DNA of 64,000 nucleotides, from the sequence record ON286972; one strand, written 5' to 3'. This document shows, piece by piece, positions 33,894-61,535 of the stretch. The number at the start of each line of letters is the position of its first letter. Positions within the stretch are counted from its first letter, which is position 1. A model generated the notes under the pieces. The model did no database searches. It saw nothing but the letters and a program-made list of their open reading frames with translations, and was not told where the DNA came from. A program made the translations under genes and the position numbers. The DNA comes from Escherichia phage A4.

Positions 33894-33941
33894 TTATTAA
33901 TCCTTTAAGCCAATAAAGTACTGGGTCAGTACTGAAATTTT

Positions 33942-34890: not shown

Positions 34891-34903
34891 ATACTTCTCC
34901 TAT

Positions 34904-40822: not shown

Positions 40823-40839
40823 TTGAAGTATTTATAGGT

Positions 40840-40867
40840 GGGACAAAGCTGATTTTAGTGCTATAAT
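40840..40867 (+). promoter_or_regulatory. sigma70-like promoter upstream of gene 55
   Basis: GGGACA-N16-TGcTATAAT. Confidence 0.5.
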
Positions 40868-44947: not shown

Positions 44948-44970
44948 GGGAGCCTTAGCTCCCTTTTTTT
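44948..44970 (+). terminator. rho-independent terminator after gene 46
   Basis: GGGAGC-ctta-GCTCCC then TTTTTTT; the convergent endo VII-like stop codon lies inside the hairpin. Confidence 0.65.
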
Positions 44971-45446: not shown

Positions 45447-45469
45447 AATGTGCCTTAGATCTAAGTTAG

Positions 45470-45486
45470 TTTATGAAATATTTATG
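45470..45486 (-). promoter_or_regulatory. late-promoter-like motif before the endo VII-like gene
   Basis: Minus-strand CATAAATATTTCATAAA ~25 nt upstream of ATG 45446. Confidence 0.4.
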
Positions 45487-45543
45487 AAATACATTCCTAA
45501 GAAATTTTTAAGTACTTTTTTTATAAAAAAGATTAGATATTTT

Positions 45544-45571
45544 GAGACACTTTTAAATTGCGTGCTATAAT
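45544..45571 (+). promoter_or_regulatory. sigma70-like promoter firing into the ORF-free region
   Basis: GAGACA-N16-TGcTATAAT; same spacing as the clpA and gene 55 promoters. Confidence 0.45.
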
Positions 45572-45577
45572 GTTTCA

Positions 45578-46064
45578 TGTAGTACTGACAATCCTGTTGA
45601 ATGCAGAAATGCATATAAATTAGAACCTAATCCACTCGAAAATGTAGAGGGTAGATGAGCAGTTCAACAGTGCGATGAGCAAAAGAAACCCGTTAGATGT
45701 GGGCATATTATGAACCCCTCACGGCGACACGGCTCAATAAAGAACTCCGATAAGCATACAGAGAGTTCCTCGATAGTTCCTCGATAGATGTATAAGGATC
45801 GCACCTTACCAGATTTGCTAAGGGAGTTTGATGATTCATTTCATTAAACAGCCTGAAGTTTGATTGTATAGACTTTCAGGTGAGTGTCAGGATGTTTAAG
45901 ACTGACGACCGTTGCACATGACTGCGATAGAGAGAAACAGAGCAACCCGCTTTCGTTCTTAATATTTTTACAATATAATTACGTTTAAATTTTAAGAAAT
46001 TCGCAATACAATAATACCGATGCCATCAGCGTCAAGAAACAGAGACTTAATTGTCTCTTTTTTA
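45578..46064 (+). ncRNA. candidate non-coding transcript (promoter to terminator), family unknown
   Basis: Bounded by the promoter at 45544-45571 and the hairpin/T-run at 46041-46064; contains an 8-bp stem-loop (CCTGAAGT...ACTTTCAGG), a tandem 11-bp repeat and only very short ORFs. Confidence 0.3.
46041..46064 (+). terminator. candidate terminator inside the ORF-free region
   Basis: AGAGAC-ttaatt-GTCTCT then TTTTTT. Confidence 0.5.
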
Positions 46065-46149
46065 TTATCTTCATTCCCCTGCGGGGGGATGAAATATCCT
46101 CAACAAATCCCGTCAAGTATTAAATCATTTAAAGTTCTTTATAATTATA

Positions 46150-46245
46150 TTAAAATGAATATGAGTTAACGTAGTTAACGAATATTCTTCAGCTAACGAA
46201 TGAAATGAGTTAGATGAGTTCAATATAAATCAAATGAATTCCTTC
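46150..46245. repeat. cluster of short direct repeats (iteron-like)
   Basis: GTTAACG x2, TAACGAAT x2, ATGAGTT x3 within ~90 bp, followed by an A-tract. Confidence 0.4.
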
Positions 46246-46307
46246 AAGAATAAATCTTTTAAGATCATAATTTCTTTCATCTACTTTGTAAGTAAAAATC
46301 CAAAAAA

Positions 46308-46341
46308 CAAAAACAAAAAAAAACCAGCAACAATGTGCTGG
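46308..46341 (-). terminator. rho-independent terminator
   Basis: Minus-strand CCAGCA...UGCUGG hairpin followed by a run of nine U. Confidence 0.6.
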
Positions 46342-46354
46342 CTTCTTATGAGTA

Positions 46355-46516
46355 TTAGTGCTTCTCGTTCATCTTCTTTACTTTCTTATTGTATGCCTTA
46401 ATAAGCATATCTCTGTCATTTACTGGCATATTAAGTAGAGTTGCATAATCGACATTATCTACATAAACAGCAGCATCCATAAGGGCATTTTTAATATCTG
46501 ATTTATTCAACTCCAT
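46355..46516 (-). CDS. small hypothetical protein (53 aa)
   Basis: Short ORF (MELNKSDIKNALMDAAVYVDNVDYATLL...) between the zinc-ribbon gene and a terminator; weak Shine-Dalgarno; below ORF-track size cut-off. Confidence 0.2.
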   Translation of the reverse strand: MELNKSDIKNALMDAAVYVDNVDYATLLNMPVNDRDMLIKAYNKKVKKMNEKH

Positions 46517-46533
46517 ATCATCCAGAAGTTCTT

Positions 46534-47421
46534 TTATTTCTTCTGGGTTTGAGAAGAGAAGCTGAGATCGAAAAAATGAGTAGGGTCATACTTTAATCCA
46601 GTAAGTTCCCATTGATGCTGACATTCAATACATTCAACTTCCATTGTATGCGATACACCAATCTCTAGTACTTCATCCATTTTCTCTCTGATTTGCTTGA
46701 TCACTTCTTTTGATTGAGTACCTAACCATTCACTTATGAATTTCTTATCTGATACTTCATCACCATCAGGAGTAATTACTTTATCAATAACTCCAGCAAT
46801 CATATCAAAGTTTAGTTGTGCCATGTTTTCAAATACTTCAGAAAACATTTTAATTTTATCATCTTCTGAAATATCAATAGTACTCTCAAGATACTTAGTT
46901 TTTTGTTGTTCAGCTAACATACGTTGAGAAAACTCTGAATATTCTTTCCAAGTAAGTGGTCTGAACTGAAGAGACAAACCATTATTAAGATCAATACTAG
47001 GAATTTCAGTAAAAGATTCTGCCGTTTCCAATAGATAAGAAAGATCACGTTCAAAACGGCCTTCTTTGGAACATGATGGACATACGACATTGACATCATA
47101 ACTGGTTTCTTTGGATGCTAACTTGATAGCAATAAGAATTTGCTCAACATCATTGACAAAAAGCTCATCTGCGTTTAGAATGTTTGGTACACAGTTTTCG
47201 ATAACAGATGACACTGCACTACCATTGAGTAACATATCAGGTGTATTGAGCATCATTTCGTCACGAGCACTACGAGCACAGACACCACATTTAATGCCTT
47301 TGCTCCCCAATACACCATCTTTGTACTGGAAAATGTTGTTAGTGACGAGTTTAGTACTAATTTCTTCGATTTTTGTGTATTTTGCTAACGGGTTCATTGA
47401 CATAATACTTTCTCCATGCAA
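46534..47421 (-). CDS. Cys-rich (zinc-ribbon) hypothetical protein
   Basis: 295-aa ORF with CGVC, CPSC and CIEC pairs suggesting two zinc ribbons; function unassigned. Confidence 0.5.
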   Translation of the reverse strand: MHGESIMSMNPLAKYTKIEEISTKLVTNNIFQYKDGVLGSKGIKCGVCARSARDEMMLNTPDMLLNGSAVSSVIENCVPNILNADELFVNDVEQILIAIKLASKETSYDVNVVCPSCSKEGRFERDLSYLLETAESFTEIPSIDLNNGLSLQFRPLTWKEYSEFSQRMLAEQQKTKYLESTIDISEDDKIKMFSEVFENMAQLNFDMIAGVIDKVITPDGDEVSDKKFISEWLGTQSKEVIKQIREKMDEVLEIGVSHTMEVECIECQHQWELTGLKYDPTHFFDLSFSSQTQKK

Positions 47422-47480
47422 TAATTATGAAAGTATTTATGTATGTTCAAAACTTCAAAATCACCCAAGAGGAATATTTT

Positions 47481-47969: not shown

Positions 47970-47989
47970 AATAATTAAATAAAATCAAA

Positions 47990-48024
47990 GCCCATATGGT
48001 TAATATCCATGTGGGCTTTTTTTA
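47990..48024 (+). terminator. rho-independent terminator
   Basis: 10-bp stem GCCCATATGG/CCATGTGGGC (one wobble) then TTTTTTT. Confidence 0.7.
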
Positions 48025-48037
48025 TACATTGCATTTC

Positions 48038-48053
48038 ATAAATATTCCTATAT
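48038..48053 (+). promoter_or_regulatory. late-promoter-like motif
   Basis: ATAAATATTCCTATAT ~25 nt before ATG 48077. Confidence 0.45.
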
Positions 48054-48076
48054 AAACTTAATGTAGGAATTATTAT

Positions 48077-50248
48077 ATGGCTGTAAACAACAGTGATTAC
48101 TTACTACAACAGATAGTGAATAAATCTAATGATACCGTAGATGGTCTTTCAGCTATACGTGAATTGTTAGCAGAAAGTTTAAAGAATGATAAAAAGAAAA
48201 ATAATGGTGGTGGTAACCCATCACCTGGCGATTCATCTGGACCAAGTGGTGGTGGACGCGGTTCTCGTGGTAATTCATCCTCTATGGGTAAAATGTTCAG
48301 AGCAATGTCCAGCGAAATGACAAACGTTGGTAAAACAATGATGAGTACTTCAGCGAATGTCAGTACTGTCATTAACTCAATGGGTATGAGTGCATCATCC
48401 GTAGCTGGCTCTCTTTCTATGATCCCTGGTCCTGTAGGAATGGCAGCATCAGCATTTAAAATGGTTGCTGATGTAGGGATGGCAGTATATAACGTAATGA
48501 ACGCCCAGCTTGAAATGTACAACAGAGTCAACAGTGCGGGTGTTTCTCTTGCTGAAGGTTATGGCTCTTTGCTAAAAGGTTCAGGTTCAGCGTTAATGTC
48601 TATGGATCTATTCAGTGAAGTAATATCAACTCATAGTGATGTTATTGCACAATTGGATGGTTCGTATGGAGATGGCGTTAAGGAATTTGGTAAATTGTTA
48701 GGTGTAGTTCAAAATGCCCAAGATAAACTTGGCCTATATGGTATGTCACAAAAAACTTTATCAGATTTAGCAGCACGTAACATCAAAATTCAAAAACAAT
48801 TTGGTGGTGCAGAACTAGTAAGGAATATAAACCAAGCACAAAGTACCCAAGAGTTAATTAAAACTATGTCTACTTTTAGTAAGACAATGGGTATGTCAAT
48901 TGATGAATTACTTAAAAAGACACAATCACTTGATAAATCATTTGATGCAAGAATACTAAAAACTACACTAAACAACTGGGTGGGACTATCAGAAGAAACC
49001 GCAACATTAACCACTAAAGCACTTACCGAAGCGGCAGGTGGTATGGGGGATATGGGTACTGATTTCCTAAGATTGATTAGCCACAGAATATCAATTGGTG
49101 GTGTTCCTGATGATTTATTATCTCCAATGATTAGCGAATTCGCTGACCTTGGTGAGAACATGGTTAAGTCTGGTGTAACCGATGCAAAAGCTATACGTGA
49201 AGCACAATATCAGTGGGTGAAGAAAAACAGAAAACGCGTTGAAGCAGATATGGAAGATATGCAACGAAGTCAAAACTTCACCGCTGCCGCATTTGCTAAG
49301 CAAATGTTAGATATGGAAGCTGCAATTAATGCTGACAAAAATCGACCAGCAGATAAAATCGCAGAATTTACTGATAGATTGAACAGATGGGTCAGTACTG
49401 AATTTGTTGCTCCATTCAATAAAATGTATGCTGATGTTCAAAATAATGTTGTTGATTATTTGACAGCAATTGCAGATCGTACCGATAGTGCATGGGGATT
49501 TATTTGGGAATTGGCTAAAGATGGATTTGGGTTAGTTCCAATATTCAAGGATGCGGTTTCTTATGTTGACCGTATTGGTAACGAATTTGTATTATGGCTT
49601 GAGGGATTGGGTTCTGACATATTTGGGGACACATATACTCAAGTTTCAAAAGCATTCGATGACTTCATGAAGAATCTCATGGATTTACCTGGAAAGTTAT
49701 GGGATAAAGTAAAAGGATGGTTTGGTTCAGATGATAAATCTGAAAAACAAGAAGAACCTAAAAAGAAAATAGAAGAGAAAGCTACATCTTTCTGGGATTC
49801 TATTGGTAATTCAGTAGACGATTTCACAAAATTTGTAGAAGAAAAAACACTTGACTTCCAAAAATGGAAATCTTCTAAATTATATACACCACCTAGACCA
49901 TTTAACGTAGATAATGCATATCGAGTCTTGGGCTATGAACCACCTAAAAACGTCCAGACTACAGTAATGCCAAATACACCACCTATGATGGAATTAACTC
50001 GTAAACATTATGATAAATCCGCATGGAAACCTGGTGAAGCACCATTCCCACCAGAACCAGATCGTGATATAAAATCTCTGGTAACGCCTCAAAACGGAAC
50101 TATAAATAATGACATGAGTTCAGAAGAGATCAAAGAAATTTTTAAACGTCTAGCAGAAATGAGTGAACAATCACTCGCAGCAACAAATCAGACAAATAAT
50201 TACTTAAGAACAATTTCTGAAAATACACAAGGTGAACGCAATAGTTAA
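48077..50248 (+). CDS. hypothetical virion protein (Gly/Ser/Met-rich N-terminus)
   Basis: 723-aa ORF immediately upstream of portal; late promoter motif upstream. Confidence 0.4.
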   Translation: MAVNNSDYLLQQIVNKSNDTVDGLSAIRELLAESLKNDKKKNNGGGNPSPGDSSGPSGGGRGSRGNSSSMGKMFRAMSSEMTNVGKTMMSTSANVSTVINSMGMSASSVAGSLSMIPGPVGMAASAFKMVADVGMAVYNVMNAQLEMYNRVNSAGVSLAEGYGSLLKGSGSALMSMDLFSEVISTHSDVIAQLDGSYGDGVKEFGKLLGVVQNAQDKLGLYGMSQKTLSDLAARNIKIQKQFGGAELVRNINQAQSTQELIKTMSTFSKTMGMSIDELLKKTQSLDKSFDARILKTTLNNWVGLSEETATLTTKALTEAAGGMGDMGTDFLRLISHRISIGGVPDDLLSPMISEFADLGENMVKSGVTDAKAIREAQYQWVKKNRKRVEADMEDMQRSQNFTAAAFAKQMLDMEAAINADKNRPADKIAEFTDRLNRWVSTEFVAPFNKMYADVQNNVVDYLTAIADRTDSAWGFIWELAKDGFGLVPIFKDAVSYVDRIGNEFVLWLEGLGSDIFGDTYTQVSKAFDDFMKNLMDLPGKLWDKVKGWFGSDDKSEKQEEPKKKIEEKATSFWDSIGNSVDDFTKFVEEKTLDFQKWKSSKLYTPPRPFNVDNAYRVLGYEPPKNVQTTVMPNTPPMMELTRKHYDKSAWKPGEAPFPPEPDRDIKSLVTPQNGTINNDMSSEEIKEIFKRLAEMSEQSLAATNQTNNYLRTISENTQGERNS

Positions 50249-50263
50249 AGGATTAATAATATA

Positions 50264-51991
50264 ATGAGTTGGAAACGTCACATGACTATGGGAAGATCAA
50301 AATTATCGATCGTACCCCAGCAATCCAATAGTAATAAATCCCCTGGGAGCAAAACTAATTTTGCTTCCTACCTTCCGGTGGTTTATAACGGATTGGCAAA
50401 CCGTACTGACCGTTACAGTCAATACGACCAGATGGATCAAGACCCAGAAATCAGAACGGCACTAAACATTATTGCTGACTTTTGTACACAGAGTACTGAA
50501 GATTTTGGTCTACCATATAAAATTAAATATAAAGATAATATTGGTGATACGGAAGTAACCACTATTGAAGACCGCTTAGATGCATGGACTGAACAGAATG
50601 ATTTCAAAACAAGAATGTATGAAATTGTTCGCGGACTACTTAAGTACGGTGACCAGTTCTTTATTCGTGACCCAGAAACATTCGACTGGTATTGGGTTAA
50701 CCCAAAAAATGTCGAACAGGTTTTTGTTAACGAAGCAACCGGAAAAACACCAGTAATATACTATATAAGAGATGTATCTCTTAACCTTAAAGATAAAGTT
50801 TTTAGTAACCTTCAAATTGGTTTTGATAAAGCTTCATATCCAGGGGCAATACCGAACACACTAGGTGGTGGTGGTCAAGTTGCCGCAGGTGGTGCATCTG
50901 GTTTTACCAACCAAGGTAATAGTTCCGATCCATTTAATACAAATGGTCGTATGGATATTATACCAGTTGGTGCAGAACACGTAATTCATCTGTCACTAAA
51001 TACAGGACAAGATGGAGTTTGGCCTTTCGGTACAAGTATACTAGAAGATGTCTTTAAAGTCTACAAACAAAAAGAACTTCTTGAAGATAGTATTATTATC
51101 TATCGTGTACAACGTGCACCAGAACGCCGCGTATTCAAAATTGATGTTGGTGATATGCAAACTAACCAAGCAATGGCATATGTTGAACGCTTTAAAAATG
51201 AAATCCATCAAAGACGTATACCTTCTAATAAAGGTGGCAGTACTTCATTGATGGATGCAGCATACAACCCACTAAGTATATTGGAAGACTATTTCTTCCC
51301 ACAAACTTCCGAAGGTCGTGGTTCAGATGTTCAAACACTACCTGGTGGTGATAACTTAGGTCAGATTGATGACTTGAGATATTTTAATAATAAACTAATT
51401 CGTGGCTTACAAATCCCAGCATCTTACCTTCCACAAGGTCCAGATGACGGCGGCGTATCACTATTTGGTGATGGTGCAACTCAAGCAATGGCAAGTGAAT
51501 TACGTTTTAATAACCAATGTATGCGTTATCAGCGTCTAGTTGCAAAAATTTTCGATGCCGAATTTAAGCGTTTTATGGTAAAAAATGGATATAACATTAG
51601 TACTTCTTCTTTTGAAGTTATTATGAATCCACCAATTAACTTGGCTTCTTATCGTAAAGCAGAATTGGATGCGAAACTCATTAATACATATATGCCACTT
51701 AATGAATTACCATATATGGCGAAACAAACTATCCTTGAAAAAATGGGCTTCTCCCAGAAAGATATTGTTAAAAATGAACAGCTATGGTTACAAGAGAATC
51801 CACAAGATTCTAATGCACCACAACAAGAAGATGTTGCTGGATTACAGTCAGTTGGTATCGACTCTCCTAATGACCCAGGTATGGACCTAGGATTAGATGC
51901 AGATGGTAATCTGGAAAGTGCTGACGCTGAATACCAAAATCAGCAAGGAAATGGCTCTTTTGACCCTAATAATTTAGGTGAATCTTTTTAA
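50264..51991 (+). CDS. gp20: portal vertex protein gp20
   Basis: IIYRVQRAPERRVFKIDVGDM...TLPGGDNLGQIDDLRYF aligns with T4 gp20 [21 protein letters not shown]...TLPGADNTGNMEDIRWF. Confidence 0.9.
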   Translation: MSWKRHMTMGRSKLSIVPQQSNSNKSPGSKTNFASYLPVVYNGLANRTDRYSQYDQMDQDPEIRTALNIIADFCTQSTEDFGLPYKIKYKDNIGDTEVTTIEDRLDAWTEQNDFKTRMYEIVRGLLKYGDQFFIRDPETFDWYWVNPKNVEQVFVNEATGKTPVIYYIRDVSLNLKDKVFSNLQIGFDKASYPGAIPNTLGGGGQVAAGGASGFTNQGNSSDPFNTNGRMDIIPVGAEHVIHLSLNTGQDGVWPFGTSILEDVFKVYKQKELLEDSIIIYRVQRAPERRVFKIDVGDMQTNQAMAYVERFKNEIHQRRIPSNKGGSTSLMDAAYNPLSILEDYFFPQTSEGRGSDVQTLPGGDNLGQIDDLRYFNNKLIRGLQIPASYLPQGPDDGGVSLFGDGATQAMASELRFNNQCMRYQRLVAKIFDAEFKRFMVKNGYNISTSSFEVIMNPPINLASYRKAELDAKLINTYMPLNELPYMAKQTILEKMGFSQKDIVKNEQLWLQENPQDSNAPQQEDVAGLQSVGIDSPNDPGMDLGLDADGNLESADAEYQNQQGNGSFDPNNLGESF

Positions 51992-52061
51992 TAATAAATA
52001 ACAATGTATATAAATGAAGGGAACGTAAAAAATTCCCTTCATATTAATGCAAGGAGATAGC

Positions 52062-52292
52062 ATGTTAAAGGATATCTTTGAATCGAATTCTGATTCTATG
52101 TACGACCCTGAAGATGATCAGACCGTATATAAAATTACGGATTCTAGAAAACCCAAACTCACATTGCAAGTACTTAACAATCTGCGTAAGTACAGAGAAT
52201 TTAAAGCAAATGAAGAACAGCGTAGAAATAATGTAGTCGCTGTTGTTTATGCTCCAGCACCAGCACCTGATGCTAATGCCGGAATGATGTAA
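52062..52292 (+). CDS. small head-module protein (possible prohead core component)
   Basis: 76-aa ORF between portal and acidic protein; start at ATG 52062 five nt after AAGGAG. Confidence 0.4.
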   Translation: MLKDIFESNSDSMYDPEDDQTVYKITDSRKPKLTLQVLNNLRKYREFKANEEQRRNNVVAVVYAPAPAPDANAGMM

Positions 52293-52333
52293 TACCTTAA
52301 AAATCGCTCTTTTTAAAGCTTTTAAAAATGACG

Positions 52334-52363
52334 AATTTTTTCAGTACTAAATAATATCATACT
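52334..52363 (+). promoter_or_regulatory. conserved 30-nt leader element before the acidic head protein gene
   Basis: AATTTTTTCAGTACTAAATAATATCATACT; near-identical to 55102-55133. Confidence 0.45.
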
Positions 52364-52396
52364 TTATAGGAATTAAATATATCTTTGGAGGATATA

Positions 52397-53239
52397 ATGG
52401 CTAATTTAAAACTACTACAAGAAGCAATCGAAGCTTTTGCTAACGGCGAGCAAGATGTAGCTGATAAAAAAATGCGTAAGTACTTTGTTGAACAAGCACA
52501 AGAAATTAACAAAGAACTAGAAGAAAGCATGGACGACGAAGAATGCTGCGATGAAGACGACAAAGAAGAGAAACTAGAAGAAGACTTCGACGTTTCCCCA
52601 GATGCTGGTCTTAATAGTCAAATCGAATATTCTCTTGGTGAAGAAGACAAGAGTGCTGAAGATGATATCGAATTCCAAGCTGGTGAAGAAGATTCTGAAG
52701 GTGAAGTTGGTGCAGAAGGTGAAGAAGTCCCTTCCGAAGACCAATGGGCGTCCATTCAAGATGCTTTCCGTGGCCTACAACAAATGTTTGATGAAATCTC
52801 CGGCGAAGGTGAAGTTGACCTAGACGCTGAAGAACCAGTAGGTGGCGAAGAAGAAGTTGATCTAGAAGTTGGTTCCGAAGACGGCGGTGATGATTTCGCT
52901 GATGTTCAATTCGGTGATGAAAAAGTTGGTGAGTCTTTCAAACTAAAAGCAGTTGCTGATGTTGATAAGAAAGAAAAAGCTGGTGCAAATACTAAATCCC
53001 CAGTTGCTTCCCAAGCTAAATCTCCAGTACAAGGCGTAGCTCCAGTAAAAATCGCTAAAAACTCAACTCCAGTAGTTGATGACAAATTTGATGGCGTAGA
53101 TACTGAATCTCACACCGTACCAGAAGATATGAATAATGTTATGGATAGCGGCAAAGGCGTAATGAAAGACGTTAAGAAAGTAACCACTGGTTCTTCTAAG
53201 TCTCGTTCCCCACTACCAAAATCACAACCAAAATTCTAA
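52397..53239 (+). CDS. highly acidic prohead core / scaffold-like protein
   Basis: Long Asp/Glu runs (EEDSEGEVGAEGEEVPSED...); start at ATG 52397 after GGAGG (track start 52385 is TTG inside the Shine-Dalgarno). Confidence 0.5.
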   Translation: MANLKLLQEAIEAFANGEQDVADKKMRKYFVEQAQEINKELEESMDDEECCDEDDKEEKLEEDFDVSPDAGLNSQIEYSLGEEDKSAEDDIEFQAGEEDSEGEVGAEGEEVPSEDQWASIQDAFRGLQQMFDEISGEGEVDLDAEEPVGGEEEVDLEVGSEDGGDDFADVQFGDEKVGESFKLKAVADVDKKEKAGANTKSPVASQAKSPVQGVAPVKIAKNSTPVVDDKFDGVDTESHTVPEDMNNVMDSGKGVMKDVKKVTTGSSKSRSPLPKSQPKF

Positions 53240-53269
53240 TAATAAATAAAACAAAGAAAGGAGATCATT

Positions 53270-53890
53270 ATGAGTATGATTCGTGAATGGTCTTCATTCA
53301 ATGATTCACAAATTGTTATGGAACATCGTGATAATGGGCTGGGAGGTCGCGATTGCTATCTTCGTGGTATCGCAATTCAAGCTGACCAGCGTAATTTGAA
53401 CGAAAGAATTTACCCTTTAGCCGAAATTGCTAAAGCTGTTAATAATATGGCTCAACGTTTGGCTAAAGGCGAAAGCATTCTAGTAGAATGTGACCACCCT
53501 GAAACTTTGACTATTAACCTTGACCGTGTAGCAGCAATGATTACTAAAGTCTGGATGGAAGGTTCTAATGGGATGGCAGAAATCAAATTACTTGATACTG
53601 CACATGGTCAAAATATTCGTAAAATGCTCGAAGCAGGTGTAAAACTTGGTGTAAGTTCTCGTGGTTCCGGTAACGTTGATTATAATGGAATAGTTTCTGA
53701 TTTCGAAATTATCACAATTGATATTGTTGCTCAACCTAGTGCTCCCGAAGCGTACCCAACAGCGGTATTTGAGTCTTTGATGAGTAAGTACGGCTCACCT
53801 TGCAATGGACCTAAAAAAATCACAGAATCTAAATCAGTAAATAAACTAGATTCTGAAATTTATGATTTTTTCAAGAAATTAAAAGGTTAA
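53270..53890 (+). CDS. gp21: prohead core protease gp21
   Basis: NERIYPLAEIAKAV, VECDHPE, GVSSRGSGN, VAQPSAPEAYPT align with T4 gp21 KRLYPKRILEKAV, GELNHP, GVSSRGLGS, VWGPSAPDAWVTP. Confidence 0.9.
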   Translation: MSMIREWSSFNDSQIVMEHRDNGLGGRDCYLRGIAIQADQRNLNERIYPLAEIAKAVNNMAQRLAKGESILVECDHPETLTINLDRVAAMITKVWMEGSNGMAEIKLLDTAHGQNIRKMLEAGVKLGVSSRGSGNVDYNGIVSDFEIITIDIVAQPSAPEAYPTAVFESLMSKYGSPCNGPKKITESKSVNKLDSEIYDFFKKLKG

Positions 53891-53902
53891 CATTTTAAAA
53901 TT

Positions 53903-53918
53903 ATAAATATTTGTATAT
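53903..53918 (+). promoter_or_regulatory. late-promoter-like motif before scaffold gene
   Basis: ATAAATATTTGTATAT, then ATTTCAGTACT leader and AAAGGAG Shine-Dalgarno. Confidence 0.5.
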
Positions 53919-53958
53919 TTGAAGTACAGATATTTCAGTACTTAAAGGAGAGAACAGA

Positions 53959-55077
53959 ATGTCTAAATTAGAAAAGCTTCTAAAAGAATCATCTCTTTCT
54001 GATGAAGCAAAACAGCTAATTCAGGAAGCATGGAATGAAGAAAAGAACACACTAGCCGCTGAAATGCGTGAAGAAATGAAAGGCCGTTATAAACAAGACC
54101 TAGCTGAACTAACAGAAGGTCTTAACACTATGGTTACTCAAGTTATCGCTGAAGAAATGGGTGCAGTATATGACGAGAAAAAACGTCTCGTTGAAGACCG
54201 CGTTACCCTCCGTAAAACTCTTGGTAACTTCTCTGAATTCGCTAATTCAGTACTAGCTGAAGAAGTTAAACAAATGCGTAACGAACGTAAACTAGTTCAA
54301 GAAAGCCTCGGTAAATTCGTTAATTTCTCTAACGGTATCCTAGCTGAAGAACTAAAAGAATTCCACAGCGAAAAACGTCAACTAGTAGAAGCTCGTGTAA
54401 AACTACTTGCTGAAGGTTCTCGTCAAATTGCAGAAGCACGTAATAACTTTATCAAACGTACCTCTGAAAGTGCTGCTAAATATATTGCAGAAACCACTCA
54501 GAAAAATCTTTACGCTTTGAAACAAGATCTTGCTGAAGCTAAACAAAATATGTTCGGTCGTAAAATCTTTGAAGCATTTGCTCAAGAATTTAATACCAAA
54601 CAATTTAATGAGAATTCACTACTTCGTTCTTTGACTGAATCAATCAAATCTAAAGAAGATGAGATTGCTCAAGTTAAACAAGAACTAAATGAATCTGTTA
54701 ACGCAGTTAAAGAAGTTCAATCAAAACTACGTATCATGGAAGATACACAGGCACGCAATGCGATTATGTCTGAATTGGTTAAGCCTTTGACTAGTCAACA
54801 AAAACAAATTATGGAATCCCTTCTAGCTGCTTCTCCAACAGAAAAGCTTAAAGAAGATTTCAGCAAGTACCATAAGTCTGTACTTAACGGTACTAAAGTA
54901 AATGAATCTGCTACCACTCGTCAAGCAGTTCAACCTTCAGCGAAGAAAACAACCCTAGCAGAAGGTAAAGTAATCACTGGCAACCGTCAGGCTATTGTTG
55001 AAAGCGAAGAAATGACCGCTGACGATATGGCATTCCTAAAAGAACTCGACGTTCTTTCTGGTATCAATAAAAAATAA
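53959..55077 (+). CDS. gp22: prohead scaffold protein (at the gp22 position)
   Basis: 372-aa charged protein with coiled-coil character, between protease and capsid genes; late promoter motif upstream. Confidence 0.6.
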   Translation: MSKLEKLLKESSLSDEAKQLIQEAWNEEKNTLAAEMREEMKGRYKQDLAELTEGLNTMVTQVIAEEMGAVYDEKKRLVEDRVTLRKTLGNFSEFANSVLAEEVKQMRNERKLVQESLGKFVNFSNGILAEELKEFHSEKRQLVEARVKLLAEGSRQIAEARNNFIKRTSESAAKYIAETTQKNLYALKQDLAEAKQNMFGRKIFEAFAQEFNTKQFNENSLLRSLTESIKSKEDEIAQVKQELNESVNAVKEVQSKLRIMEDTQARNAIMSELVKPLTSQQKQIMESLLAASPTEKLKEDFSKYHKSVLNGTKVNESATTRQAVQPSAKKTTLAEGKVITGNRQAIVESEEMTADDMAFLKELDVLSGINKK

Positions 55078-55101
55078 ACATTTTAAAGCATTTTAATAAT
55101 C

Positions 55102-55133
55102 AATTTTTTCAGTACCATAAATAATAACATACT
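55102..55133 (+). promoter_or_regulatory. conserved leader element before major capsid gene
   Basis: AATTTTTTCAGTACCATAAATAATAACATACT containing CATAAATA. Confidence 0.5.
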
Positions 55134-55169
55134 GAAAAACGAATATAACATCTTTAAGGAGATAATATA

Positions 55170-56345
55170 ATGTCACAACTACTAAATGAATCCAAATGGG
55201 TAGCAGTTAAAGAGAAACTAGTTGAAGGTCTTCAAGGTACTCGTAAATCCGTAATGGAAACCGTTCTTGATAACCATCGTAAAGTTATGCTACAAGAATC
55301 TGCAACCGCTGGTGCAACTTCTGCTGGTAACATCGCTACTCTAAACAAAGTGATTCTACCAATTATGCGTCGTGTAATGCCAACCGTTATCGCTAACGAA
55401 ATCATCGGTGTTCAACCAATGACTGGCCCAGTTGGTCAAATCCACACTCTACGTGTTCAATACGCTGACAACGCACCAGGTGTTGTAGCTGGCGAAGAAA
55501 TGCTATCTCCATTCAAGATTGCTAAATCTTACACTGGTGAGCTAAACTCTGACAACAGCAACCCACAAGCTGCTCCTACTAGCCAACTAGAAGGTACTAT
55601 GGGTCGTCGCGTTAACATCCGTATCCTACGTGAAACTGTTGAAGCGAAATCTCGTCGTCTATCTGCACGTTGGACTGTTGAATCTGCACAAGATGCACAA
55701 TCTCAACATGGTATCGACGTTGAAGCTGAACTAATGGCTGCTATCGCACAAGAAGTTACCGTTGAAATCGACCAAGAACTACTAAGCCGTCTACGTGCTC
55801 TACCAGGTGCTGCTGCTGTAACTTATGACCAATCTAAAGTAACTGGCGTTGCTACTTTCGTTGGTGATGAGCACGCTGCTCTAGCTACCCTAATCAACCG
55901 TCAAGCGAACGAAGTTGCTCGTCGTACCAAACGTGGTGCTGCGAACTGGGCTGTTGTTTCCCCAACCGCTCTAACTATTCTACAATCTGCAACTACTTCT
56001 AGCTTTGCACGTACTACTGAAGGTACTTTTGAAGCACCAACTAACGTTAAATTCGTTGGTACTCTAAACAGCACCATGCGTATCTTTGTTGATACCTACG
56101 CAAGTGACGTAGAAGATATTCTAATTGGTTATAAAGGTAATGCAGAAACTGATGCTGGTGTATTCTATTGCCCATACATCCCACTAATGGCATCTGGTAC
56201 TGTTATGGACCCTAACACTGGAGAACTCGTTACAACTTTCTTAACCAGATACGGGTATGTTCAGTTGACCGATAGCACCAGTTCACTAGGTAACGCTGCG
56301 GACTACTACAGCAAAATCGCTATCAAAAACGTTACTTTCATGTAA
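55170..56345 (+). CDS. gp23: major capsid protein gp23-like
   Basis: IANEIIGVQPMTGPVGQ, VEAKSRRLSARWTVESAQDAQSQHGIDVEAEL and GYKGNAETDAGVFYCPYIPL align with T4 gp23; strong terminator follows. 391 aa versus 521 in T4. Confidence 0.9.
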   Translation: MSQLLNESKWVAVKEKLVEGLQGTRKSVMETVLDNHRKVMLQESATAGATSAGNIATLNKVILPIMRRVMPTVIANEIIGVQPMTGPVGQIHTLRVQYADNAPGVVAGEEMLSPFKIAKSYTGELNSDNSNPQAAPTSQLEGTMGRRVNIRILRETVEAKSRRLSARWTVESAQDAQSQHGIDVEAELMAAIAQEVTVEIDQELLSRLRALPGAAAVTYDQSKVTGVATFVGDEHAALATLINRQANEVARRTKRGAANWAVVSPTALTILQSATTSSFARTTEGTFEAPTNVKFVGTLNSTMRIFVDTYASDVEDILIGYKGNAETDAGVFYCPYIPLMASGTVMDPNTGELVTTFLTRYGYVQLTDSTSSLGNAADYYSKIAIKNVTFM

Positions 56346-56368
56346 TAATAAAGAATTTAAATATACTA

Positions 56369-56398
56369 GGGACTCTTCGGAGTCCCTTTTCTTTTTTT
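56369..56398 (+). terminator. strong rho-independent terminator after major capsid gene
   Basis: GGGACTC-ttcg-GAGTCCC then TTTTCTTTTTTT. Confidence 0.8.
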
Positions 56399-56474
56399 CA
56401 GAAAAAAAGCTTGACAAGTAGATTTTAATTATATATAATTACCACATACCAAAAATCACAAAGAGACAAATAAA

Positions 56475-57581
56475 ATGCCAAAAGTAAGTATCGACAAAGA
56501 AAAATTCATTGAAGAGATGAACAACAAGTATGGAGCATATGGTGAATTTGATTTCAGCACTTTAGTATTCAAAGCCAGTAAGACAACAGTTAAATGTAAT
56601 AAATGCGGAAAAGAAAATACTAAACCTGCACTACGTCACATTTCATGTACATGTTCTTCATGTTATTCAAACATGTCACAGCGTTCGAACAACGAAAAAT
56701 TTATCAGCACGGTAGAAACTAAATTTGGAAAAGATAAATTCAAATTTGATAAACTAAATTACATTAACGCTATAACAAAAGTAACAATACTCTGTACAGA
56801 CGAAGAACATAACGATTACTTTGAAATTACACCAAACAAATTTCTTACTGGTAAGGGATGTCCTATATGTAATAAAAATGAAGCATACAGTACTGAAGAA
56901 TTCGTAGAAAAAGTAAAAGAAAATTATGGTGATTCATTAGATTTAACTAACACAGTATATGTAAATCAAAAAACTAAAGTAACTGTGTATTGTAAAGCGG
57001 GTAACCATGAATGGACAGTTGATCCGAAAACTTTACTTGTTGGTAAGACTGGTTGTGGTACATGCTCCGGTAAAGGTGGTCGCAGTACTGAACGTTTCAT
57101 TGAACTGGTATCACCTATCCATAACCATAAGTATGATTATAGTTTGGTTGAATATACTATAAGCGAGAATTATGTTGATATTGTATGTCCAACTCATGGT
57201 GTTTTCTCCCAACAACCAAAAGCACATATGGCTGGTAAAGGATGCCCATCATGTGGTGAATATGGATATCAGCCATCAAAACCTGGATATTTCTATGTTC
57301 AAAAACTAACTAATAAAGATAAGACAGTGTACAAGTATGGAATCACTGGCGATATGAAACGCCGTGTAAATGAGCAAAGTCGTCATTCTGATTTTGAACA
57401 CACTGTACTGGTAGAACGTTACTTTGAAGATGGTCATAAACCCTTAGTACTGGAAAAGTTTTTGAAACAATACATTGATAGTGGTGTAGTAACTACTGAA
57501 GAGTTGCCATCAGGATTCACAGAAACTTTTGATGCTAAGTATCTTGAAACAGTACTGGAGATTGTAAATACATTTGAATAA
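56475..57581 (+). CDS. zinc-ribbon repeat protein with C-terminal GIY-YIG-superfamily-like domain (putative free-standing endonuclease)
   Basis: Four ~60-aa modules each ending in a Cys pair (CNKCGKEN / GKGCPICN / GCGTCSG / GKGCPSCG), then GYFYVQKL...YKYGITGDMKRRVNEQSRH; motif reading only. Confidence 0.45.
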   Translation: MPKVSIDKEKFIEEMNNKYGAYGEFDFSTLVFKASKTTVKCNKCGKENTKPALRHISCTCSSCYSNMSQRSNNEKFISTVETKFGKDKFKFDKLNYINAITKVTILCTDEEHNDYFEITPNKFLTGKGCPICNKNEAYSTEEFVEKVKENYGDSLDLTNTVYVNQKTKVTVYCKAGNHEWTVDPKTLLVGKTGCGTCSGKGGRSTERFIELVSPIHNHKYDYSLVEYTISENYVDIVCPTHGVFSQQPKAHMAGKGCPSCGEYGYQPSKPGYFYVQKLTNKDKTVYKYGITGDMKRRVNEQSRHSDFEHTVLVERYFEDGHKPLVLEKFLKQYIDSGVVTTEELPSGFTETFDAKYLETVLEIVNTFE

Positions 57582-57605
57582 ACACTAAGCAGGGAAGCTT
57601 TCACT

Positions 57606-57956
57606 ATGTTAACTGTATACATTTTTAAAAAAGAAGAGTACTTAAAGAGTCAGTACTCAAAAATTGAGATCAATGTTCCTTATGGAACGTTGGTGGGTTA
57701 TGATGAGGCTACGGAGACGTTGTATTACAATGATGATCGTCTGGATTACAGTACTGATCATTTTATAGAAGATATATTGAGTACTGAATCAGAAGACATG
57801 TTGTATGAAGAATATATTGACAAATACAAAGAACGCATGTCGAAGTTACATGCTGATGCTCCAGTACTGAACACTCCTAAAACCCCATCCGAGTTTGATC
57901 CTCAAAATCCATTTCAACGCCTGATAGATGCGGGTGTAAACTTCAGAATTAGTTAA
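57606..57956 (+). CDS. hypothetical protein
   Basis: 116-aa ORF between the two GIY-YIG-like genes. Confidence 0.3.
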   Translation: MLTVYIFKKEEYLKSQYSKIEINVPYGTLVGYDEATETLYYNDDRLDYSTDHFIEDILSTESEDMLYEEYIDKYKERMSKLHADAPVLNTPKTPSEFDPQNPFQRLIDAGVNFRIS

Positions 57957-57986
57957 TAATAAATATCTCCATACTAGGAGATATCT

Positions 57987-58295
57987 ATGTCACAAATATG
58001 TTATGTAATCACTAATAGTGCATGGCCTGAATATGTAAAGATAGGCTTCACTACAAAATCAGAGATGAAAGAGCGTTTAGGTGTTTATCAGACAGCTTCA
58101 CCATTCAGGGATTTTGAGGTATACCATCAGGTTATGTTTGACGATGCACGAACAGCAGAAAAGGAAGTGCATAAGAGATTAAAGCAAATGAATGCAACAA
58201 GGCAACCTAACTCTGAATGGTTCAAGATGCCTAAAAAGTTAGCTGCAAATATTATTGATTCCGTATTGGATGATATGGAAAATGATTTACTATAG
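57987..58295 (+). CDS. T5orf172 / GIY-YIG-like domain protein
   Basis: CYVITNSAWPEYVKIGFTTKSEMKERL...VH..L...EWF fits the T5orf172-type GIY-YIG pattern; GGAG Shine-Dalgarno. Confidence 0.55.
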   Translation: MSQICYVITNSAWPEYVKIGFTTKSEMKERLGVYQTASPFRDFEVYHQVMFDDARTAEKEVHKRLKQMNATRQPNSEWFKMPKKLAANIIDSVLDDMENDLL

Positions 58296-58335
58296 ATATA
58301 AATATGATATATATTAAACAAAAAAGGATTTTTAC

Positions 58336-59946
58336 ATGAGCATAAGTTTTAATCATCCACAGAATACTGTAACCAGTACTGCGGAAAATGGTTCATTGAA
58401 TCTAATAGTACTAGGTGGTACACCAACTAATCCTCGACCAATTAGAATGAATTCTTCATCGGTAATACTACCTGTTCAGGATTTACCTATTGGTGAAGCA
58501 GGGGCGATAGTATTTGACAAAAACACTCTTACTTTGAAGTATCATGATGGTACGAACTGGATTGAAATGTTAAGTGCTGCCGATGTAGTTGCACCAATTG
58601 AACAACAGATTCAGGATATCAATTCTATACTTGGAACTAAGGTTGATAGAGTAACCTATTCAATGTCATCAATTCCAACTGCTTCTATTAGCGGAACTAC
58701 ATTGAATATTATATTCCCAACACCTTCATCAATTCAAGGAGCTAATGGTTTGTACACGAGTGCTAAACCTGGATGTATTATGCATTATAGCTTGACATCT
58801 GGACAAACCGTTGCTAGTATACGTGAACAAATGTCGGGTAGTACTGGTGGACAGAGTGGTCGTGACGGCTCCCAAGCTAAACCGTGGAAAACATCCGATG
58901 GTTGGTGTTTTGCTGATGGTATGTGGTGGCAGTGGCAAGGTGCTAATGGTACAATAACCAAACAAGTACCAAACTTGAACCGTGATGGATATTTAAGAAG
59001 TATCACCACTAGTGGTATAACCAAAACTGACGCAATTATTGCAGGTGGTGGTTCATTAACACCGAGTACTTTCACTATTCCAGACCACATTCATGGGACT
59101 GGTAAAATGTTAGGTACTAACGGTAGTGATGCGGATGATGCTGTTTTCATTAGTGGTAGAGCATGGAATGATGGCAGAGGCTATCGTGGTCCTGCAATCT
59201 TTGGTGATAAGAATGCCCGTATGGAGTTTAGTGTAGATGGTAATAATGCAGCAACTGCATTATCAACTTCACAACCAATTTATGATGATGCGAATGCCCG
59301 CACAATAACCCATAACCATACAGTAACAGGTATTGACGTACCACACTTTAACACTGCAATTTTGTATAACATTTCCGAACCATCAGTTGCGATGAGCGAA
59401 AATACTGCAAATGATCGTTTTGTTCGTAAAACTGGTGATACAATGTCTGGTGAATTATACATTGCTAACCGTGCTGGTATTCGTGGTGGTGGTGATTTGT
59501 ACTTATTCTTCCAGAACGCTAGTGGTGGTGAACGTGCAGCAGTATACTTCCAAGGTAATGAACTAAGACTTCGTGCTGGTGGTGGTGCTGTAACAGTTAA
59601 CAGTGGTGGTTCTTTGTATATTCCAGGTTCATTAACAGTTAACGCAGCATCAGCAACTGTCGGAACGAAACATATAGTACGTTCTGTTAACGGCTCAACT
59701 GCTGGTTCTGATGGTAATGTAAATATATCTGTCGGATCAGTACAAGATGTACGTTTTTTCAATCAAGATTATTATTGGCCGGGTGGTAATGAGTTATCAT
59801 GGCACTTTGTGTGTCCATCAGGTGCAGTACTAAGTGGTATAAATGTACAAGATGTTGGTAAAAACTCTGCTGATAACATTGGTGGTGTGAATTATAAATT
59901 TATACAAATTTTGGTTGATGGTAGCTGGAGAAATATAAACGGATAA
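58336..59946 (+). CDS. tail fibre protein
   Basis: DRFVRKTGDTMSGELYI fibre hallmark plus Gly-rich beta repeats; N-terminus MSISFN mirrors MTISFN of the collagen-like fibre protein. Confidence 0.5.
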   Translation: MSISFNHPQNTVTSTAENGSLNLIVLGGTPTNPRPIRMNSSSVILPVQDLPIGEAGAIVFDKNTLTLKYHDGTNWIEMLSAADVVAPIEQQIQDINSILGTKVDRVTYSMSSIPTASISGTTLNIIFPTPSSIQGANGLYTSAKPGCIMHYSLTSGQTVASIREQMSGSTGGQSGRDGSQAKPWKTSDGWCFADGMWWQWQGANGTITKQVPNLNRDGYLRSITTSGITKTDAIIAGGGSLTPSTFTIPDHIHGTGKMLGTNGSDADDAVFISGRAWNDGRGYRGPAIFGDKNARMEFSVDGNNAATALSTSQPIYDDANARTITHNHTVTGIDVPHFNTAILYNISEPSVAMSENTANDRFVRKTGDTMSGELYIANRAGIRGGGDLYLFFQNASGGERAAVYFQGNELRLRAGGGAVTVNSGGSLYIPGSLTVNAASATVGTKHIVRSVNGSTAGSDGNVNISVGSVQDVRFFNQDYYWPGGNELSWHFVCPSGAVLSGINVQDVGKNSADNIGGVNYKFIQILVDGSWRNING

Positions 59947-59949
59947 TTT

Positions 59950-60405
59950 ATGATAACTTTAAAAAATTTTAAATCATATGAAGGTAATGACCCTAAATTA
60001 AAAAAATTAAATGTTGCTTTTTTAATTTCAGAATGTGGAATGGATTGGTATGATTCTCAAAAATTATTTTCCGAAAATACAATGAAAATTGTGGTTGATA
60101 AAAATAATATAGTTTGCAATGCAACACGTGATATTACTATGATGTATCCAGTGGATGCTAGTGTATATGAAATTGAATATGATGGTGATGGACATGAACT
60201 AAGAGGAAAAATATATCATGAAGAAGATGGCACTTTTTCTGAAAGACCACCTCGTAAACCTACCCCACAACAAATATTCAATGATTTGAGTGAACGTAAA
60301 AAAGTACTGGACATGAAGAAAGAATTCGATATGTTGAGCACTGAAGAAGCTGCTGAGTACGAGAAGCTAATCTCTGATCTTAAAGAAGTACTAAATCTAC
60401 TATAA
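59950..60405 (+). CDS. hypothetical protein (possible fibre assembly chaperone by position)
   Basis: 151-aa ORF immediately after a fibre gene; 13-bp-stem terminator follows. Confidence 0.3.
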   Translation: MITLKNFKSYEGNDPKLKKLNVAFLISECGMDWYDSQKLFSENTMKIVVDKNNIVCNATRDITMMYPVDASVYEIEYDGDGHELRGKIYHEEDGTFSERPPRKPTPQQIFNDLSERKKVLDMKKEFDMLSTEEAAEYEKLISDLKEVLNLL

Positions 60406-60453: not shown

Positions 60454-60605
60454 CCCTTTAAATTGGATGTATTTTTATTAAATTAAAATAAATATCAATG
60501 CTTATGTACAGAGTAGAAAACTATTAAGTACAGTGCTCTATTTTGTTTATAAGTTTTTTTATTTTATTTTTAATAATTTACAGTCAAAAGAGGGGTTTTA
60601 TATAC

Positions 60606-61103
60606 ATGTTAATTTATAGAGGTTGGGAACAGTATTATCCAGAATCTGAATATTCATTTTCATTTTATAGAGATGAAAATGGCAATGATTGGTATGAATT
60701 GCGTGATGAATTAATGAAATTGTCCAATGTTTGTGGTTTTCTTGTAGCTTATCGCGGGGATGGAGATCCAAATAATAATTACATCGCCAGTGCTAGTTCG
60801 GAAATTGATAGACTCTCTCCTGTAAATCATGATTTGTATATTGTAGATATAAGTATCATACCTGATGATTTCTTAGAGAATCCGTGGAATTATATGTTGT
60901 ATAATGATACAATAGTTCCAAATGCAATCATGCGACAACAAGAAATAGACATGGCAGTTCGTTGGGCTGATGAAGAAATCAAGATGCTAACGACCCCACG
61001 CTTACTTCAAGCTTATCTAGCAGAAGTTCGTGCATACCGTGCAGAACTGTTGGCAATAGATTTAAATGAAACCCCATTTATTGATTTACCATTCAGACCA
61101 TAA
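60606..61103 (+). CDS. hypothetical protein
   Basis: Track ORF begins at a TTG (60543) in AT-rich spacer; ATG 60606 has an AGAGGGG Shine-Dalgarno and is taken as the start. Confidence 0.35.
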   Translation: MLIYRGWEQYYPESEYSFSFYRDENGNDWYELRDELMKLSNVCGFLVAYRGDGDPNNNYIASASSEIDRLSPVNHDLYIVDISIIPDDFLENPWNYMLYNDTIVPNAIMRQQEIDMAVRWADEEIKMLTTPRLLQAYLAEVRAYRAELLAIDLNETPFIDLPFRP

Positions 61104-61110: not shown

Positions 61111-61138
61111 GGGACACATTGAGAAGTACTGATATAAT
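61111..61138 (+). promoter_or_regulatory. sigma70-like promoter upstream of the polymerase block
   Basis: GGGACA-N16-TGaTATAAT. Confidence 0.45.
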
Positions 61139-61205: not shown

Positions 61206-61508
61206 ATGGCTAAGTCTAAAAAAGAAGCAAAAGTAGAAATTCGTGACCTAAACGACGAACAACGTAAACGTCTAAGTGATGGTCTAAACAATGCAGTGGT
61301 ACAGCTAACCTTTATTGATGATACCAAAGCTTCCTATACTGATTTCATCAACTCTCTTTCTGATGAGCTAGGTATTGATGCATCCGATATCAAACAAGCT
61401 GCACAACGCATTTACAAAGGCGATTACTTTGATAAGCAAAACAAACTAGACAACATCGAAACTATCCTAAGCGTAACTAATAATCTACCACAAGCTGATG
61501 ATTATTAA
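61206..61508 (+). CDS. hypothetical small protein
   Basis: Start at ATG 61206 after GGAG; early-type promoter (GGGACA-N16-TGaTATAAT) just upstream. Confidence 0.35.
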   Translation: MAKSKKEAKVEIRDLNDEQRKRLSDGLNNAVVQLTFIDDTKASYTDFINSLSDELGIDASDIKQAAQRIYKGDYFDKQNKLDNIETILSVTNNLPQADDY

Positions 61509-61535
61509 TCAGTACTGAATACTTAAAAATTTATG

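Follow-up and report, generated by a model that had tools for sequence, protein, structure and literature searches.

Short A/T-rich sequences of one family recur before the virion genes of Escherichia phage A4, among them the scaffold gene, and they raise the question of whether they are late promoters of the phage T4 type and, if so, of what such a promoter consists. The window, by which we mean the whole 64,000-nucleotide stretch that was analysed (from record ON286972), is the structural and late-gene block of a Rak2/121Q-like jumbo myophage, with 83-87% DNA identity to Escherichia phages BF17 and 121Q. Bases 48000-60000 were 87% identical to BF17 and about 83% identical to 121Q, PBECO4, phAPEC6 and similar phages, and the entire window was collinear with 121Q genes 569-610. 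Its first part holds fibre genes and the genes for a ClpA-like ATPase, a 3325-aa virion protein and a gp6-like wedge protein, with gp25-like and lysozyme genes after them; the middle holds those for the late sigma factor, SbcD and SbcC, endonuclease VII, the baseplate hub and a 723-aa virion protein; and the end holds those for the portal, protease, scaffold and major capsid proteins, an endonuclease and tail fibres, and the start of a DNA polymerase gene. On the gene map used, 94.9% of the window is coding and 5.1% non-coding. Most gene labels in a preliminary description of this DNA were right; however, its "J-like" gene is, by the 121Q annotation, that of a T4 gp6-like baseplate wedge protein, and its "collagen-like" label refers to a single run of only seven G-X-Y repeats. 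Rfam and tRNA scans across the window gave no matches.

Late promoters of T4 carry the octamer TATAAATA at -13 to -6 and are read by gp55 together with gp33 and the gp45 sliding clamp. The preliminary description had presented the family in A4 as this octamer plus a conserved downstream addition, in the form of the 16-mer ATAAATATTYSTATAT before five genes. The 16-mer had exactly four matches in the window, at 12292-12307(-), 33942-33957(-), 48038-48053(+) and 53903-53918(+), with none expected and none in 100 dinucleotide-preserving shuffles; the fifth proposed site, 1461-1476(-), reads ATAAATACTTGATATA and contains only the heptamer ATAAATA. With up to three mismatches allowed, 14 matches were found in the window against 10 expected, which is chance level. 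A scan of IMG/VR for the exact 16-mer yielded, among the matches listed, mostly unrelated contigs, including giant-virus bins, and was uninformative on its distribution. Shorter variants, described as CATAAATA(A/T), were correctly placed before the giant gene (30390-), the capsid gene (55117+) and the endonuclease VII gene (45485-), but not before the lysozyme gene, where the base preceding each of the two boxes (34912-, 34928-) is A and not C. The T4 octamer itself was not enriched in the window, with 4 copies found and 9 expected. The consensus of the family is instead the heptamer ATAAATA, corresponding to -12 to -6, with the base at -13 free, and the 16-mer is a subset of the promoters with a T-rich spacer and a TATA(T) start region, not a family-wide consensus.

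The heptamer was less frequent in the window than expected (20 copies against 32), and 19 of the 20 copies were found inside the 5.1% of non-coding DNA (binomial p = 5e-24). All 19 were sense-oriented, with a start codon on the same strand following at a distance of 15-111 nt (median 32), so that neither a similar density in coding DNA nor placement on the wrong strand, for both of which the sites were checked, was seen; the sole copy inside a gene is at 50102(+). The genes preceded by the 19 sites are those for capsid, scaffold, protease, baseplate, fibre, lysozyme and endonuclease VII proteins, on either strand. The complete 121Q genome has 55 copies, compared with about 290 expected from base composition, and 33 of these lie in its 7.2% of non-coding DNA, preceding annotated virion structural genes (5, 18, 24, 45, 54, 155, 199, 201, tail sheath and tube, and others). 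Within the 121Q early block (105-200 kb, about 250 small genes), no copy of ATAAATA precedes any start codon. Around the capsid genes of 80 IMG/VR loci, 248 of 309 copies were in the 5.9% of DNA that is non-coding. Moreover, when expected counts were taken from a maximal-order Markov model, no hexamer was as under-represented as TAAATA, with z = -6.0 for the window and -15.6 for 121Q, and this avoidance is a signature of selection against spurious promoters.

It could be argued that the motif is a functionless by-product of A/T-rich intergenic composition and shared ancestry: intergenic DNA is indeed A/T-rich, much intergenic sequence is common to close relatives, and the exact 16-mer occurs by chance in many unrelated viral contigs among the matches listed. 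The orientation of the sites speaks against this, as all 15 copies in same-strand (tandem) intergenic regions are sense-oriented (p = 3e-5), and so do the genome-wide avoidance of TAAATA and the sharing of the motif by independent, non-orthologous sites within one genome. In addition, at the gp6-like gene of relatives with 33-41% protein identity, ATAAATA was present at the same place, followed by N4-(T/A)AT, although the flanks could not be aligned. We regard this explanation as effectively refuted.

A separate observation concerns over-represented words. The palindrome CAGTACTG, with the core AGTACT, was hugely over-represented, AGTACT being the top over-represented hexamer; CAGTACT had 104 matches in the window with 9 expected, and CAGTACTG had 194 sites in 121Q with about 3.5 expected. 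The palindrome was present in all genome regions and in all reading frames, and the excess was confined to the close Rak2-like clade. A literature text search for CAGTACTG returned primer sequences only.

The sequences around the heptamer were compared position by position, with the first A of ATAAATA numbered as position 1. Upstream of the box, from -19 to 0, no position departed significantly from background in either the window (n = 19) or 121Q (n = 33), and the sites had no conserved -35 element; the base immediately before the heptamer, which in T4 is T(-13), was A in 9, C in 5, G in 2 and T in 3 of the 19 window sites. In a sigma-70 promoter, 16-18 bp separate a TTGACA-like -35 hexamer from the TAnnnT -10 hexamer downstream of it. 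The TATAT of the 16-mer was considered as such a -10 hexamer and rejected, there being neither a -35 element nor a conserved final T (the last base is A, G or T). Promoters of the sigma-70 type in the window look different, namely TTGACA-17-TATAAT at 56411-56439 and TGnTATAAT before the gp55-like gene.

In total, 19 canonical and 2 variant sites were predicted to be late promoters, and four of these carry the exact 16-mer. The predicted promoter of the scaffold (gp22-like) gene (53959-55077), at 53903-53918(+), reads ATAAATATTTGTATAT and lies 49 nt before the ATG; at the orthologous site of 11 relatives, ATAAATAT-y-(tg/at)-TA-y-A is retained. That of the 723-aa virion structural gene (48077-50248), ATAAATATTCCTATAT at 48038-48053(+), directly follows a terminator hairpin (47987-48019). 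In 10 relatives, the only invariant block of this intergenic region was ATAAATA-NNN-CTATA, which was kept despite an extra ORF and terminator inserted just upstream of it in phage A4. The gp6-like baseplate wedge gene (30429-33893) has ATAAATATTTCTATAT at 33942-33957(-), also preceded by a terminator hairpin; 121Q and more than 12 Rak2-like contigs have this 16-mer unchanged, and wherever a Rak2-like contig has an intergenic promoter at this gene, the promoter reads ATAAATATTTCTATA(T/C), the alignment failing right after it. Before the tail protein gene with the short collagen-like run (11138-12265), ATAAATATTCCTATAT occurs again at 12292-12307(-), and the 121Q orthologue, ATAAATATTGGTATAT, has a changed spacer and unchanged flanking elements (TTGGTATAT in 121Q versus TTCCTATAT in the window). 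Orthologous promoters keep only ATAAATA and (C)TATA, and the spacer of 3-4 bases between them drifts.

The remaining sites in the fibre and tail region carry the heptamer with other downstream sequences. The partial fibre gene (<3-1439) is preceded by ATAAATACTTGATATA at 1461-1476(-), whose 121Q orthologue is ATAAATACATCATATA, and the 1845-aa long-tail-fibre-like gene (2381-7918) by ATAAATAATTACATAT, with N4-CATA, at 7967-7982(-). A predicted promoter for the gene at 12375-12872, ATAAATAAATGAAAGT at 12336-12351(+), is divergent from the tail protein promoter ending at 12307(-) and is conserved in 121Q. The first of the two variants, at 17963-17978(-), reads GTAAATACAGATATAC, a one-mismatch heptamer GTAAATA with N4-TATAC, and precedes a structural operon starting from 17941 that comprises gene 16445-17941, a gp15-like gene and a NUDIX gene; the orthologous 121Q site is GTAAATAAAGATATAC. 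Before the giant 3325-aa virion protein gene (20370-30347), the site ATAAATAAATCAAATG at 30375-30390(-) is identical in 121Q over 16 bases. The tail lysozyme gene (34402-34890) has two ATAAATA boxes 16 nt apart, at 34897-34928(-), as it also does in 121Q; the distal box is probably the more plausible promoter, because a start directed by the proximal one would fall inside the Shine-Dalgarno sequence. Further minus-strand sites are TATAAATACTTCAAATG at 40820-40835, before the structural gene 40064-40795 and divergent from the gp55-like gene; ATAAATATTTCATAAA at 45470-45485, before the endonuclease VII gene (44955-45446); and ATAAATACTTTCATAA at 47425-47440, before the baseplate hub gene (46534-47403).

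On the plus strand, an ATAAATA box that is conserved in 121Q precedes the small gene 52062-52292, at 51994-52009, and the second variant, CTAAATAATATCATAC at 52347-52362, precedes a virion protein gene (52397-53239) with a CTAAATA box of the Aeh1 type; its 16 bases are identical in 121Q. Both variants, GTAAATA (17978-) and CTAAATA (52347+), have kept N4-YATAC in the window as well as in 121Q, and together they suggest that -12 tolerates other bases, as it does in Aeh1. The prohead protease gene (53270-53890) is preceded by ATAAATAAAACAAAGA at 53242-53257(+) and the major capsid gene (55170-56345) by ATAAATAATAACATAC at 55117-55132(+), the orthologues of the latter keeping ATAAATA-A-nnn-(C/T)ATAC. 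We also observed a conserved 10-bp inverted repeat, with compensatory changes, whose arms (55106-55115 and 55130-55139) bracket the capsid site; the other late promoters have no inverted repeats around them. The last sites are ATAAATATCTCCATAC at 57959-57974(+), before the gene 57987-58295; TATAAATATGATATATA at 58298-58313(+), before the tail fibre gene 58336-59946; and an ATAAATA box at 60488-60503(+), which lies 111 nt before the tail-fibre-assembly-like gene 60606-61103 and is the least certain site.

Downstream of the box, over all 19 window sites, only position 13 stood out, with A at 12 of the 19 sites in the window and at 23 of the 33 in 121Q (p = 1.4e-4); the TT-N-TATAT proposed earlier is thus not a consensus of the family. 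Because the T4 box spans -13 to -6, the heptamer falls at -12 to -6 and position 13 becomes the predicted +1. The tetramer YATA was most frequent at a spacing of N4, in 8 of 19 window sites (p = 1.4e-9) and 9 of 33 sites in 121Q (p = 1.1e-8), and among non-identical IMG/VR sites N4-YATA was present in 39 of 199, with small shoulders at N3 and N5. The A of YATA coincides with the +1 that T4 spacing predicts, and the downstream part is better written as ATAAATA-N4-YATA. In a second subclass, S-AAA(T)G takes the place of YATA (12336, 30390, 40835, 53242). About half of the sites lack YATA, and the downstream element is therefore not obligatory.

We compared these patterns with T4, using the 50-kb late region from bases 70 to 120 kb with its 19 boxes before annotated starts. 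T4 has its box at -13 to -6 with an A/T-rich segment downstream, and among T4-like phages the base at -13 varies (PMC2988020, PMC1524935). In the T4 region, position 13 was A in 13 of 19 boxes and N4-YATA occurred in 4 of 19 (p = 2e-4), compared with 8 of 19 in the window, examples being AATAAATATATCTATAT before inh and TATAAATAGTATTATAT before gene 24. The two phages are alike in having a single -10-like box and no -35 element, in A(-12), A(-9) and A(-8), in A/T-rich DNA downstream and in a preference for A six bases after the box; they differ at -13, where T is common in the T4 region (13 of 19 sites) and infrequent in the window (3 of 19). As T4 late promoters show the downstream pattern too, it does not distinguish the clade, and the claim that the element extends the T4 promoter had to be given up. 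The supposed extension appears to be a start-site preference that is common to T4.

Two other explanations of the downstream element were weighed against a start-site preference. The (C/T)TATA(T) could be bound by some other phage protein, acting as a late co-activator or repressor, whose site would extend over the start in part of the promoters. The invariance of CTATA at the 723-aa gene promoter in 10 relatives, with a spacer that varies, would fit such a site, the usual description of T4-type promoters demands no particular sequence beyond the box, and in a clade reportedly without gp33 another factor could exist. The element, however, is placed exactly at -1 to +3 by T4 geometry and its phasing peaks at N4 and has shoulders on either side (N3 and N5), as wobble of the start site predicts; it is a short sequence without palindromic symmetry, S-AAA takes its position in many promoters, and T4, for which no such factor is known, has the same pattern. 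We consider a separate binding protein improbable. Still less probable, in our estimation, is that the 16-mer is conserved for a function of the first mRNA bases (5'-AUAU...) in the stability of the leader, in capping or in translation. A start at position 13 would place positions 13-16 in the transcript, and conservation does stop at about position 16, but this leaves only 3-4 conserved transcribed bases, beyond which the leaders differ completely both among promoters and among orthologues, and Rfam has no match anywhere in the window.

The predicted reader of the motif is a 279-aa gp55-like late sigma factor, the gene for which was correctly said to lie within the window, at 40920-41759(+). 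Its product matched the PHROG late sigma factor families phrog_12791 (1.5e-151) and phrog_234 (3.6e-17) and has hundreds of homologues of 279-290 aa in jumbo-phage contigs. A single-sequence search of PDB sequences gave no match for it, whereas a profile of 17 homologues matched T4 gp55 (PDB 7d7c_F) with E = 1.3e-7 over the sigma region-2 homology domain; since a profile was needed, the match is a remote one. T4 gp55 has 185 aa, compared with 279 for the A4 protein, in which about 120 residues are inserted behind the N-terminal helix; a conserved C-terminal RDDLLExxGF segment is also present in the gp55-like sigma.

The structure of the T4 protein allowed the aligned residues to be related to the bases of the box. 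The pockets of T4 gp55 that receive the flipped bases A(-12), A(-9) and A(-8) are formed by N13, L54, R57, F86, H95, Y97 and T99, with A(-12) stacking on Y97, A(-8) bonding T99 and A(-9) contacting N13 and H95 (PMC7892883). All three flipped adenines are present in ATAAATA. Residues F86, Y97 and T99 of T4 align to the invariant F203, Y223 and T225, and an invariant F221 stands in the place of H95. The counterpart of N13 is likewise an invariant N13, although this pairing lies in an N-terminal helix segment that matches weakly (E = 33 alone). The free base at -13 in A4 is in keeping with these contacts, as -13 is not read by any gp55 pocket.

The sigma gene itself is preceded by a sigma-70-type extended -10 promoter, TGcTATAAT, and is followed by gp47/gp46-like genes for SbcD and SbcC, as in T4. 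The nature of its promoter suggests a cascade, in which host sigma-70 would lead to the gp55-like sigma and this in turn to the virion genes.

The ATAAATA motif class has already been published for this clade, in phages CBB and GAP32, from sequence analysis alone. Buttimer et al. (2017) described ATAAATA as "promoter 3" of CBB, with A/T concentrated downstream and 35 sites before structural genes, likened it to the T4 sequence TATAAATA and noted a gp55-like sigma factor (PMC5259590); according to the account given there, GAP32 also has a predicted ATAAATA motif (Abbasifar et al. 2014, as cited in PMC5259590). The 14-nt motifs in Table S7 for CBB include CTAAATA variants and ATAAATATTTCTAT (PMC5259590), the latter, from Porf_237, being the same sequence as ATAAATATTTCTATAT at 33942-33957 of the window, at an apparently matching site. 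A4 thus resembles CBB and GAP32 in clade, in heptamer, in placement before structural genes and in CTAAATA variants, and it resembles CBB further in having a gp55-like sigma gene nearby that is preceded by a promoter of the TG-n-TATAAT class ("promoter 2"). It is nevertheless a different phage, only 83-87% identical in DNA to its nearest records, and the CBB publication goes no further than 14 nt and a mention of A/T richness, to which the present analysis adds the phased N4-YATA, the genome-wide avoidance and the conservation at orthologous sites. The CBB authors detected no gp33 or gp45 homologues in the clade (PMC5259590), and the T4 mechanism of activation is therefore not simply transferable. 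In Aeh1 the late promoter is CTAAATA (Nolan et al. 2006, PMC1524935); there C at -12 is the rule, whereas in A4 it is a rare variant (52347+) that retains a strong N4-CATAC. The PA5oct transcriptome paper gives only sigma-70-like TATAATA/TTGAC promoters and no usable mapping of late promoters, and a literature search found no mapped transcription start or expression timing for A4 or its close relatives.

Taken together, the placement, orientation and avoidance of the heptamer and the presence of a gp55 homologue support the T4-type reading given in the preliminary description, although neither the consensus nor the extension stands as worded there. We conclude that the ATAAATA sites are very probably (with a probability of roughly 85%) a set of gp55-type late promoters of the Rak2/121Q-like jumbo phage A4. 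We propose that host core RNA polymerase carrying the gp55-like sigma (40920-41759) would recognise a single -10-like box, ATAAATA, positioned at -12 to -6 as in T4 and without a -35 element, and that the A/T-rich stretch just downstream would open, allowing late transcription to start at the A six bases after the box, often within Y(-1)A(+1)T(+2)A(+3). Against this count the remoteness of the gp55 match, the insertion of about 120 aa and the replacement of H95 by F, as well as the distance of 111 nt between the 60488 site and its gene and the heptamer within coding DNA at 50102. A bolder version holds that the gp55-like sigma reads a bipartite sequence, ATAAATA plus the phased Y(-1)A(+1)TA, that this frees late transcription from a T4-style co-activator and clamp, and that the capsid promoter is a special case presented in the loop of its inverted repeat; we think this unlikely and offer it as speculation.

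The result is a map of 21 predicted late transcription units that can be used in annotating phage A4. It sharpens the description of the promoter of the clade to ATAAATA-N4-YATA with a free base at -13, the downstream part being common to T4. It also supplies defined sites at which 5' ends can be mapped and on which a gp55 variant with about 120 inserted residues can be studied in vitro.

Among the late promoters of the window, that of the major capsid gene had an additional feature: a perfect 10-bp inverted repeat, with arms TTTTTCAGTA and TACTGAAAAA, flanked it (55106-55139); the arms enclose the ATAAATA box together with the predicted start. The stem was retained in nine relatives by compensatory changes (CAGTA/TACTG, CTGT/ACAG, and TTGT/ACAA), and its fold energies lay between -5.8 and -9.0 kcal/mol, as compared to -1.4 to -3.3 for shuffled sequences. 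None of the 20 other late promoters was bracketed by a comparable inverted repeat, leaving the capsid promoter as the sole case (p = 0.003 for this promoter alone). The repeat could form an RNA hairpin in transcripts reading through from the scaffold gene, or it could act as an element at the DNA level.

Coding DNA of the window contained a single ATAAATA, at 50101-50108 (+) within the 723-aa structural protein gene (48077-50248). It was the full T4 octamer TATAAATA, and the portal gene begins 155 nt downstream of it; in phage 121Q the orthologue of the 723-aa gene likewise contained a heptamer, about 200 nt ahead of the 121Q portal gene. The box in the window may serve the portal gene as a late promoter situated inside the 723-aa gene. 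Upstream of the 723-aa gene, between it and the baseplate hub gene, there was an ORF of 162 to 180 aa (47427/47481-47969), which gave no match to PHROG or Pfam, was followed by its own terminator (47987-48019), and had no counterpart at the same position in 121Q; it looks like an inserted gene. At the gp6-like gene it was 121Q that carried the additional gene: comparison of 121Q (L081, 14100-14897) with the window (33894-33957) showed that an HNH endonuclease gene (gene 584) separates the conserved ATAAATATTTCTATAT promoter from the gp6-like gene. Some IMG/VR relatives (loci L088 and L099) also had an extra ORF between this promoter and the gp6-like gene. The insertion at this locus is that of a mobile gene; it lies downstream of a strong late promoter and presumably uses that promoter.

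Promoters of the sigma-70 type were interspersed among the late promoters. A perfect TTGACA-17-TATAAT was located at 56411-56439, directly 3' of the capsid terminator (56368-56387) and upstream of the endonuclease gene (56475-57581). Extended -10 boxes (TGnTATAAT), which match the 'promoter 2' class of the related phage CBB, occurred upstream of the gp55-like gene (about 40857-40865), the ClpA-like gene (about 18002-18010), and gene 61206-61508 (61130-61138), and also at 45563-45571. This last site falls within a gene-poor gap of 1.1 kb (45447-46533) that separates the endo VII gene from that of the baseplate hub. All ORFs in the gap were 55 aa or shorter, scans for tRNAs and Rfam families gave no match, and two terminator-like hairpins were present (46041-46058 and 46318-46347). 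A comparable gap occurs in 121Q at 326.5-327.3 kb.

The gp55-like sigma factor itself (gene 40920-41759) differed from T4 gp55 in carrying an insertion of about 120 aa that follows the N-terminal helix and precedes the sigma region-2 homology domain. A C-terminal segment, RDDLLExxGF(D/T)PS, was conserved, and one possibility is that it has a role in clamp binding.

The palindrome CAGTACTG, with core AGTACT, was in massive excess across the whole window (for example, at 693-700, 19198-19205, 33927-33934, 57083-57090, and 61510-61517) and throughout the 121Q genome (L081-L087), with 25 sites in the window against about 0.7 expected and 194 against about 3.5 in 121Q; AGTACT was the most over-represented hexamer (z = +18.8 in 121Q). 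In the window CAGTACT was observed 104 times (8.9±3.2 expected) and TTCAGTAC 35 times (3.2 expected). Copies were found in coding and non-coding DNA and in early as well as late regions; those in coding DNA used all frames, with a bias to xxC-AGT-ACT-G. The excess is specific to the close Rak2-like clade, with a density of 1.7 per kb versus 0.2-0.3 per kb in remoter relatives. The palindrome is possibly a site of protein binding, nicking, or modification.
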